Below are positions 21,084 to 22,652 of a stretch of 32,000 nt of DNA, in pieces. Every line of letters starts with the position of its first letter. The stretch's first letter is position 1. Source of the DNA: an uncultured archaeon. Its GTDB lineage: Archaea > Asgardarchaeota > Lokiarchaeia > Sigyniarchaeales > Promethearchaeaceae. A program made the translations under genes and the position numbers. The notes under the pieces are model-generated. The model made no database searches, was not told the origin of the DNA, and saw only the letters and a list, made by a program, of their open reading frames with translations. The DNA lies in the NCBI GenBank assembly GCA_964426185.1, contig CAYRPF010000001.1, positions 71,695 through 103,694 of the forward strand, read 5' to 3'.

Positions 21084-21101
21084 GATTTAATATATTAAAT
21101 C
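21084..21101. repeat. Perfect 18-bp palindrome at the junction of the degenerate methyltransferase and cmk
   Basis: GATTTAATATATTAAATC is its own reverse complement. Confidence 0.6.
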
Positions 21102-21877
21102 TTGGAGAATATTATATTATTTCTTATTTTTTCACACTTTTTATTGAATTCATCTAAATTGTTATCTGAAAGAATCAATATACTATCTTCTTTAAACGAA
21201 TATAATTCAAGAAATCTCGATAGATATTTTAACCAATGTTTTATTTCATTTGTACAATTCCATATTGATTTTGTAAATTTAATGAAATCATCTCTTTCAA
21301 TAGTATCTGTTTTCTCAATTTCATTTTTCTTATCCCTTTTTTTTCTTCCATATATATTTTTACTGAAAACAACTCCATGATCATAATTATTCTTGATTTT
21401 ACTTCTATCAGATATTCTTTCATTATTATAGGATAAGATTACTTCTCCTCTCATTAAATAGCCTTCTTTAATGATATTGGGGATAATGAATGAGTGTAAA
21501 GGGAAAAACCGTTCCTTATACTCATTGTGAATAATAACAACTAATCTGCCCCCATTTATCAGTAAAATTCTTAAATTAGAAATTAATTTTGCGATTTTTT
21601 CAATAAAAACATCAATTTGATCAATTTTTTTATCTGATATCTTTAAAATTATTAGATGAATGGATTCTTCAGGTAAATTACTCAATAAATCTTCAATTTC
21701 AAGAATTTTGCCGTAATATTCTTCATTGATGTCTTCGGAATTATCAATTATCTTACATTTTTTTTCTTTCGGTATTCCATCATATAATCGAGAAGAATAA
21801 AATTGGGTTGCATCATGACCTTCCCGCTTTGTTCCACCAAATGATTGCGTTTTAGTTCTTTCTCTTTTCATTTTCAT
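21095..21877 (-). CDS. Catalytically degenerate beta-class DNA methyltransferase paralogue (intact ORF)
   Basis: Aligns to the neighbouring methyltransferase (LPEESIHLI, L..GGR, PLHSFII, GY.MRGEVI, VFSK, KSIW, LYSFKEDSIL). TSPPY is replaced by ILKIS and DPFMGSG by ILSDNNL. Confidence 0.8.
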   Translation of the reverse strand: MKMKRERTKTQSFGGTKREGHDATQFYSSRLYDGIPKEKKCKIIDNSEDINEEYYGKILEIEDLLSNLPEESIHLIILKISDKKIDQIDVFIEKIAKLISNLRILLINGGRLVVIIHNEYKERFFPLHSFIIPNIIKEGYLMRGEVILSYNNERISDRSKIKNNYDHGVVFSKNIYGRKKRDKKNEIEKTDTIERDDFIKFTKSIWNCTNEIKHWLKYLSRFLELYSFKEDSILILSDNNLDEFNKKCEKIRNNIIFSKI

Positions 21878-22652
21878 TCTTCTTTTTCATTTTTCCATGT
21901 AAGTATTGATTTATTCTCCTATTTGCCAATTCCACGTATTCTATATTAATTTCATATCCAATATATTTCCTTTTAGCAGCTAATGATGCAATTGCTGTTG
22001 ATCCTGAACCCATAAATGGATCTAATACAATATCATCTATATCTGTAAAAAGCCTAATAATTCGATATGGCAATTCTACTCTAAATGGGGCTGGATGATT
22101 AACTGTTCTTGCGCTTTCTGCTCCAAAAGTCCATATATTTTGACATAATTCATTATCACTAATGACGATTGATTTTGATTCTACTTTAAGAGAAATATCA
22201 TTTATTTCATTTATCTCAAGTTCTTCATCTGATTTAGAAGCTATAATTATATATTCATGAACGTCTCTTAAAGATGGATTTGAAGCAGATTTCCAACTTC
22301 CCCATGCACAAGAACTTCCTGCACTTGCAGCTTTATTCCAGATTATTTCTTGATGCACTGAATAACCTATATTATACAAAATTTGTATTACATAACAATC
22401 CAGTGGAATATATGGTTTTCTCCCAACATTGGCAATATTAACAGCACATATACCACTATCTGTCAATACTCGATATACTTCTGAAAAGACATTTATTAAA
22501 AGGTTTAAATATTCTTTTAAAGTTAAATTTTCATCATAATCCTTTGTTACGTTATATGGGGGGGAAGTTACCATTAATTTTATTGAACCATCAGGTAAAT
22601 CAGACATTGATTGAGCATCAGAATGGTAAATATAATTTTTCTTGAAATTCAC
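21852..22652 (-). CDS. Beta-class DNA methyltransferase, probably N4-cytosine (SPPY)
   Basis: LMVTSPPYN, IIWNK, AWGSWKSASNPSLRDVHEYI, HPAPF, VLDPFMGSGST, GYEIN. GTG start. Confidence 0.94.
   Translation of the reverse strand: MNFKKNYIYHSDAQSMSDLPDGSIKLMVTSPPYNVTKDYDENLTLKEYLNLLINVFSEVYRVLTDSGICAVNIANVGRKPYIPLDCYVIQILYNIGYSVHQEIIWNKAASAGSSCAWGSWKSASNPSLRDVHEYIIIASKSDEELEINEINDISLKVESKSIVISDNELCQNIWTFGAESARTVNHPAPFRVELPYRIIRLFTDIDDIVLDPFMGSGSTAIASLAAKRKYIGYEINIEYVELANRRINQYLHGKMKKKNENEKRKN

Follow-up and report, generated by a model that had tools for sequence, protein, structure and literature searches.

What can the product of an intact gene do when it has lost both catalytic motifs of its family and lies directly downstream of a paralogue in which they are preserved? 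The question is raised by a 32,000-nucleotide stretch of DNA (positions 71,695–103,694, forward strand, of contig CAYRPF010000001.1 in GenBank assembly GCA_964426185.1; hereafter the window) from an uncultured archaeon of the family Promethearchaeaceae (Asgardarchaeota; Lokiarchaeia; Sigyniarchaeales), in which two open reading frames (ORFs) related to beta-class DNA methyltransferases (MTases), ORF A and ORF B, overlap on the reverse strand between window positions 21095 and 22652. Comparison with relatives suggests an answer: the two ORFs probably encode the two parts of a single heterodimeric DNA amino-methyltransferase of Type II, and we infer that the two products bind each other and that activity depends on the partner. 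The original prediction, which had been made from the letters of the window, proposed that a homodimer has been subfunctionalised into a catalytic and a scaffold subunit; this proposal now draws comparative support from the partition of conserved residues between the two chains, from their conservation and linkage, and from natural fusions.

The window belongs to a 3.26-Mb metagenome-assembled genome (MAG; G000), which is 92% complete, and the metagenome runs containing the stretch are from hydrothermal vents and marine sediments. The relatives referred to by name below, recognised from the identity of their loci, are Candidatus Harpocratesius repetitus FW102 (G001), which like G002 belongs to the same genus, and Promethearchaeum syntrophicum MK-D1 (G011) and Candidatus Lokiarchaeum ossiferum B35 (G010), both of the same family.

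An intact methyltransferase and its dead paralogue

The features of the pair, in window coordinates, are as follows.

21852..22652 (-), ORF A, the active subunit: beta-class amino-methyltransferase of 266 residues, GTG start, armless
22554..22568 (-), motif IV TSPPY (catalytic), ORF A residues 29–33: invariant in 14 of 14 partner actives
22263..22307 (-), AWGSW..SASNP..LRD loop, ORF A residues 116–130: retained in the active subunit only; residues 117 and 119–132 are part of the modelled interface
22083..22097 (-), HPAPF motif, ORF A residues 186–190
22002..22022 (-), motif I DPFMGSG, binding S-adenosylmethionine (SAM), ORF A residues 211–217
21852..21877 (-), overlap of ORF A and ORF B, 26 nt: ORF B in frame +1 relative to ORF A
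21095..21877 (-), ORF B, the dead subunit: degenerate beta-class MTase fold of 260 residues, ATG start, arm-bearing
21782..21856 (-), N-terminal basic arm (T.T..FG...RE.HD...FY.S.LY), ORF B residues 8–32: holds 11 of the 25 residues invariant in the dead family
21635..21649 (-), eroded motif IV, ILKIS in place of TSPPY: ORF B compared with single-gene relatives
21443..21553 (-), GGR, PLH and MRGE elements, altered in the active subunit but retained in the dead one: R122, R154 and G155, numbered as in single-gene enzymes, survive in the dead clade only, and ORF B residues 126, 128–133 and 141–147 belong to the modelled interface
21260..21367 (-), basic FSK..KR segment and TDTI.RD.F...TKSIW, in the dead subunit only: residues 191–205 contribute to the modelled interface
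21158..21175 (-), eroded motif I, ILSDNN in place of LDPF.GSG: the chain ends soon afterwards

ORF A matches PF01555 (N6_N4_Mtase) with an E-value of 1.4e-47 and 163 bits (cut-off 26.7), and among solved structures it is closest to TTHA0409 (2zie; E 1.3e-20). Motifs IV and I are both intact, with motif IV N-terminal to motif I, the order that places the enzyme in class beta. The chain lacks an N-terminal arm, and NIW is preceded by a segment (residues 141–174) that is acidic and divergent. Together with its counterparts elsewhere (the partner actives, 14 members including ORF A), it forms one clade in a maximum-likelihood tree, with a support of 100 in the Shimodaira–Hasegawa-like approximate likelihood-ratio test (SH-aLRT).

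Neither Pfam nor NCBIfam gave a match for ORF B. It is nevertheless related to ORF A (BLASTP E 2e-4) and, far more closely, to full-length single-gene MTases of related genomes (E 1e-23 to 2e-29). Its AlphaFold2 model has a predicted local distance difference test score (pLDDT) of 82.8 and a predicted template-modelling score (pTM) of 0.81, and the top 30 Foldseek matches to this model are all class-beta DNA MTases, the best being 2zie (TTHA0409; E 6.6e-13, template-modelling (TM) score 0.61–0.67); another match, 8urk, is M.BceJIV, a DNA N6-methyladenine MTase. ORF B is thus a true homologue and a relative by fold of the beta class, but not an enzyme of the family. Besides the erosion of motifs IV and I, HPAPF and the AWGSW loop are missing, while the basic FSK..KR / TDTIERDDFIKFTKSIW segment is retained. 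The N-terminal arm is found in single-gene relatives and is absent from all partner actives; in the ORF B monomer model its pLDDT is below 50. In public databases the dead gene is annotated as 'hypothetical protein' in both P. syntrophicum MK-D1 (QEE15744.1, DSAG12_01571) and L. ossiferum (UYP44726.1, NEF87_001011).

These observations bear out the original description of the locus in full. The upstream ORF had been said to keep TSPPY, HPAPF, DPFMGSG and the AWGSW loop, to have no arm and to contain an acidic stretch, all of which were located in the sequence; the downstream ORF had been described as intact, 260 residues long, devoid of catalytic and SAM-binding motifs and equipped with the arm and the basic segment, as the alignment confirmed; and coordinates and homology agree with two paralogues overlapping by 26 nt.

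Partition of the conserved residues

The partition of residues between the two chains was followed over 101 columns conserved at 90% or more in 12 single-gene, arm-bearing relatives, with survival in a clade set at a threshold of at least 80%. Survival was confined to the active clade for 63 of the 101 columns and to the dead clade for 17, with nine columns surviving in both clades and 12 in neither. The active-only columns make up TSPPYN, the NIAN.GRKPY segment, the AWGS..SASNP.LRD.HEY loop, HPAPF and DPF.GSG, and the dead-only columns comprise seven residues of the arm, GGR, the RG of MRGE, and the F and S of F...TKSIW. The active clade thus lacks the arm, R122, R154, G155 and F213, all of which single-gene enzymes keep without exception, and for this reason it is expected to depend on a partner. 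The statement in the original prediction that single-gene members carry all of these elements in one chain proved correct, as seen in five loci (L008–L012), and mapping the motifs against such homologues gave the complementary pattern that it had envisaged.

The same partition has arisen a second time. P0040, a protein of 775 residues found in two assemblies, consists of a dead N-terminal half followed by an active C-terminal half. Both halves group with the single-gene enzyme P0037 (SH-aLRT 99), and P0040 therefore represents an independent duplication. Its dead half has the arm, R122, R154 and F213, and its active half has lost them. The sub-family formed by P0040, P0037 and P0038 carries in addition a C-terminal domain of ~220 residues after the MTase, with a zinc-ribbon-like CP.C...CP.C motif.

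Linkage of the two genes and selection on the dead copy

A search of 1.84 billion representative proteins returned 141 matches at E-values up to 1e-3, among which the dead type (arm present, motifs IV and I absent) accounts for about 21 clusters of 260–310 residues. Dead copies are intact in about 25 lineages, and the 25 members placed in the maximum-likelihood tree form one clade (SH-aLRT 100). Wherever a split locus includes upstream DNA, an armless active PF01555 gene lies directly upstream of the dead one (11 of 11 loci: L002–L005 and L013–L019), the two genes overlapping by 4 nt at one extreme and lying about 50 nt apart at the other. Fusion of active and dead parts into one ORF of about 600 residues has occurred in Ca. 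H. repetitus and G002 (L006, which is P0010, and L007) and again in P0048, which is rich in guanine and cytosine (GC); P0145 is a further protein of fused length (603 residues), 42% identical to P0010 over the dead half. In the window's own genome, which is 92% complete, a search with P0002 returned P0002 alone, so that no arm-bearing paralogue is at hand there as another partner.

The dead and active clades contain matching sub-clades, and the pairwise distances within the two are correlated (Mantel r 0.79, a value not reached in any of 5000 permutations). Some correlation is to be expected from kinship by itself; the result shows that the two genes are inherited or transferred together. Between G011 and G013 the ratio of nonsynonymous to synonymous substitution rates (dN/dS) is 0.24 in the dead gene, compared with 0.28 in its active partner and 0.13 in the adjacent ThaI-family nuclease discussed below; synonymous sites are saturated in all gene pairs except this one and G012–G007. 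The dead family retains 25 invariant residues, which are concentrated in the arm, and signs of a pseudogene (stops, frameshifts, a dN/dS near 1 or patchy retention) were not seen in the dead gene, which is open in all lineages seen. Judged from these comparisons, the dead copy is under purifying selection and is not decaying. The original prediction had allowed that the dead copy might prove to be in neutral decay, or not to be conserved beside the active one; its intactness, dN/dS and invariant residues speak against the former, and the 11 split loci and three fused forms against the latter.

A dead-type sequence was also met outside this arrangement. In L114 (G022, Promethearchaeota PPR_0005), a frame-0 ORF ending near position 2064 encodes a 1350-residue protein, which looks TPR- and SIR2-like by eye and whose end continues in frame into the last ~95 residues of a dead-type copy (EKTDTISRDQFLEYTKSVW onward); an arm fragment lies nearby on the opposite strand, and the dead-type fragment is probably a rearranged remnant.

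ThaI-family nuclease and the likely substrate

A ThaI-family nuclease gene (PF15514, E 7e-30) follows the pair in P. syntrophicum MK-D1 and in a Promethearchaeum MAG. In locus L103 a ThaI gene, 66% identical, and an armless active MTase gene point away from each other at the contig end, and in L104 a ThaI gene is divergent from an arm-bearing single-gene MTase. L013, which holds the closest relative of the window pair, has its ThaI gene (305–776, reverse strand) broken into two short ORFs of 96 and 58 residues with the N-terminus missing, and looks like a restriction–modification (R-M) system caught decaying to an orphan methylase pair. No match to PF15514 was obtained in the window's genome, at 92% completeness, at E-values up to 0.1, no ThaI gene was found in G001, G002, G005 or G010, and the ThaI query matched Asgard relatives only. 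By this gene content, the window pair is to be regarded as an orphan methyltransferase that appears to have persisted after loss of its nuclease.

ThaI cuts CG/CG, and enzymes that methylate cytosine at N4 typically have a motif IV of the SPPY type. The ThaI-family neighbour in relatives and the SPPY motif IV together favour N4-methylcytosine (m4C) in DNA at CGCG as the product of the pair, an assignment to which about an even chance may be given. M.ThaI itself is listed as a CGCG, m4C enzyme with a single Type II MTase entry (PMC11033074).

Models of the complex and a proposed division of labour

The complex model scored 0.88, and the best of its three controls 0.01. Of 80 solved complexes 58 attain this mark, as do 2 of 110 mismatched pairs (approximate counts, as custom alignments were used). 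Runs of the model reached a contact agreement of at least 66%, with a partner pLDDT of at least 78. On the active side the modelled interface involves residues 75–90, 99–106 and 117–132 (the AWGSW loop), and on the dead side residues 118–136 (PLH), 141–147 (MRGE) and 191–205 (TKSIW); as modelled, it is built from the elements that are partitioned between the subunits. The natural fusion P0010 is predicted to form one body (pLDDT 84.6, pTM 0.86), in which the only stretches of low confidence are the loop after SPPY, the AWGSW loop (residues 112–121, pLDDT below 50) and the arm.

The ancestor of the pair is likely to have been an arm-bearing beta-class enzyme, the solved relatives of which are homodimers. 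The upstream subunit would have kept SAM binding, methyl transfer and the loop for the target strand, and the downstream subunit would be a pseudoenzyme in which the fold, the elements of the dimer interface (GGR, PLH, MRGE and TKSIW) and the conserved basic N-terminal arm persist. In the complex of CcrM with DNA, target-strand binding and catalysis fall to the MTase domain of one monomer, an appendage of the other binds the non-target strand, and the loops of unused function are disordered (PMC6787082). It is by analogy with this structure that the arm and the dead protomer are assigned a non-catalytic role: as the monomer not engaged in catalysis does in CcrM or EcoP15I Mod, the dead subunit may buttress the loops of the active subunit and hold the DNA, probably by the non-target strand.

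Several points weigh against this reading. The score of the complex model may reflect likeness to the solved homodimers TTHA0409, MboIIA, RsrI and CcrM. The arm is not confidently placed in any model, so its role is a guess. The dN/dS from unsaturated sites comes from just one gene pair, and the dead subunit has the higher rate of evolution, with inter-genus identities of 31–43% compared with 53–68% for the active subunit. Finally, the assignment of CGCG and m4C leans on a nuclease neighbouring the pair in other genomes and on a general rule for SPPY motifs, and the window's own genome is without a ThaI gene. A stronger statement can be formulated, namely that an obligate heterodimer of an active DNA MTase and a pseudoenzyme has originated in prokaryotes at least twice independently within one methylase family, with the dead subunit required as sole keeper of the DNA-holding arm and of half of the originally symmetric interface; this seems to us about as likely as not.

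Alternative explanations

The dead protein may instead be functional without being a stoichiometric subunit, acting as a regulator or stimulator (as DNMT3L does for DNMT3A), as a controller of the R-M operon or as a reader of methylated sites. The conservation of a basic arm and fold in the absence of catalysis would suit such a role, as would the persistence of the pair without a nuclease in most genomes, which fits regulatory methylation. On the other hand, the natural fusions impose a 1:1 stoichiometry, and the predicted interface is large and uses the partitioned elements, so that this explanation is considered unlikely.

The position of the pair inside the rpl34e–cmk–rpl14e block, between rpl34e and cmk, suggests a further alternative, in which the pair methylates RNA (rRNA or tRNA) rather than DNA; some beta-class enzymes do act on RNA (PMC7544214). 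This ribosomal-protein neighbourhood is, however, specific to the present genome: rpl34e, cmk and rpl14e are contiguous in G001, G011 and G005 with no MTase interposed, and the other loci of the pair lie in unrelated contexts. The GC content is also low in the pair (29.8% in ORF A and 25.3% in ORF B) relative to the flanking genes (40–42%). Since the pair is low in GC and the three genes are contiguous in relatives, it is foreign DNA, acquired as an insertion between rpl34e and cmk, and the ribosomal neighbourhood is therefore uninformative on the substrate. With a ThaI restriction nuclease accompanying the pair in several lineages, RNA as the substrate is very improbable.

Neither terminal repeats nor a target-site duplication were found flanking the inserted pair. 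At 22652–22679 a 14-nt unit (CATTAAATCAAAAT) occurs as two perfect tandem copies, which begin at the first base of the GTG of the active gene and extend upstream; this repeat could be a promoter or leader element or an insertion scar. At the other end (21084–21110) the final codons of the dead ORF merge into a conserved leader just upstream of cmk (AGATTT..TATA..ATCATG; common to G001), so the insertion abuts the cmk start; cmk may be co-transcribed with the pair in the present genome. The third MTase (19533–20447, reverse strand, 304 residues, between cmk and rpl14e) is also of the beta class, with a DPPF motif IV and a PF01555 match at E 4.5e-36, and has a GC content of 42%, like the flanking genes and unlike the pair. 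Next to rpl34e lies a homologue of Vps28, of the endosomal sorting complex required for transport I (ESCRT-I), at 23183–23902 on the reverse strand (PF03997, E 1.5e-6); this vps28–rpl34e adjacency is also present in G001, G010 and G005. The Vps28 homologue and the same-genus relative Ca. H. repetitus bear out the original prediction in its placing of the DNA in an Asgard archaeon.

Could the two ORFs be one fused gene, as in Ca. H. repetitus, separated in the window by an indel that arose in assembly or sequencing, or translated as one chain through a +1 frameshift at the overlap? The existence of fused forms in both G001 and G002, each of the same genus, and the A-rich overlap invite the question. 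The junction at 21852–21877 was checked in Logan contigs, in which rare variants are invisible, and is bridged with no differences and no gaps by independently assembled contigs of three runs: X1 (21095–22011), which may be the source sample, X2 (21670–21982) and X4 (21811–22028), the last from a different study and year. A contig of X5 (record 22) stops at 21875 and was excluded from this count. One apparent variant, a 2-nt 'GA' insertion at 21636 in a 212-nt X2 contig, was rejected; the alignment spans 31 nt with loose ends on both sides, and the contig is attributed to another organism and not to an allele. The split form is moreover the commonest state in the clade: all 21 standalone representatives of dead-type clusters are of single-domain length, and the other split loci with DNA show ordinary coupled junctions with no common slippery site. 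The 33–41-residue linker of the fused forms is not found in the window pair, the sister of which is the split pair of L013 and not the fused forms of its own genus. The artefactual indel that the original prediction had allowed for was accordingly not found, and a single gene, whether broken by error or restored by frameshifting, is highly unlikely.

That ORF B is a functionless, pseudogenised duplicate beside an enzyme that works alone as a homodimer, as the loss of both catalytic motifs, the missing Pfam match and the faster evolution might suggest, is scarcely credible for an ORF intact in about 25 lineages between genera of which synonymous substitutions are saturated, with a dN/dS of 0.24 and 25 invariant residues, always linked to the active gene and at least twice fused to it, and with a partner clade that has lost residues always kept by single-gene enzymes.

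Relation to known methyltransferases

The two-part enzyme proposed here can be compared with the homodimeric members of its own class. CcrM (6pbd), M.EcoP15I Mod2, TTHA0409 (2zie), M.MboIIA and M.RsrI share its fold and motif order (IV before I), and both ORFs match TTHA0409 best, in sequence as well as in fold. In CcrM the active site of one monomer is used per DNA and the other monomer gives the DNA-binding appendage, much as in the proposed division of labour. Homodimeric class-beta MTases have two identical chains, however, whereas in the window pair the roles would be fixed in two genes, one of them permanently non-catalytic; furthermore, the CcrM-type appendage is a C-terminal domain, in contrast to the N-terminal arm of the pair. 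The point in common with the M.ThaI / ThaI system is a ThaI-family nuclease, which in several Asgard genomes stands beside the pair or beside one of its single-gene relatives. Nitrososphaera has many arm-bearing relatives of the single-gene type. A persistent group of orphan m4C MTases specific for CGCG has been reported there (PMC10609329).

Eukaryotic METTL3–METTL14 and ciliate MTA1–MTA9 similarly combine an active subunit with a paralogue in which motif IV is eroded (PMC7544214), and their structures are distant fold matches to ORF B (E about 1e-6 to 1e-5, TM score 0.39–0.46). These are MT-A70 enzymes, however, acting on adenine in RNA or ApT DNA, whereas the window pair is of the PF01555 family, neither ORF matching MT-A70 (PF05063) at E-values up to 1. 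The resemblance to METTL3/14 is accordingly an analogy with no sign of orthology, as the original prediction had been careful to state, and the origin of the pair is, from its sequence relationships, to be sought in an arm-bearing prokaryotic R-M methylase.

Elsewhere, too, a self-associating methyltransferase has been duplicated and one copy has lost catalysis and been kept as a partner, as in Trm6–Trm61 compared with TrmI and in DNMT3L–DNMT3A. These differ from the pair in fold or class and in substrate, and none is a prokaryotic R-M DNA methylase. A 2020 review of class-beta MTases asks whether homodimers are obligatory for activity, and the heterodimers that it discusses (METTL3–METTL14 and MTA1–MTA9) are eukaryotic (PMC7544214). 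No prokaryotic heterodimer of an active and a dead beta-class DNA MTase was found in the literature, coverage of which excluded most subscription journals and REBASE, so that the negative is weak evidence of novelty. The active/dead two-part design has so far been described mainly in eukaryotes.

Significance

If the heterodimer is real, it would be a prokaryotic counterpart of the METTL3–METTL14 and MTA1–MTA9 design and a natural demonstration of the intrinsic asymmetry of class-beta MTase dimers; it has no bearing on eukaryogenesis. For the family, the pair amounts to an experiment in natural mutagenesis, according to which 63 conserved positions would be needed in the catalytic protomer only and 17, the whole N-terminal arm among them, in the non-catalytic protomer only, a result with which P0040 agrees. 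It would also exemplify an R-M methylase that persists as an orphan after the loss of its nuclease, and it suggests a rule for annotation, in that an armless MTase of the present subfamily should have a dead partner downstream. For the Asgard archaea themselves, a function is proposed for a conserved 'hypothetical protein' of both cultured Lokiarchaeia (DSAG12_01571 and NEF87_001011), and since P. syntrophicum MK-D1 and L. ossiferum both carry the pair, the idea of a heterodimer can be tested in these cultured organisms.

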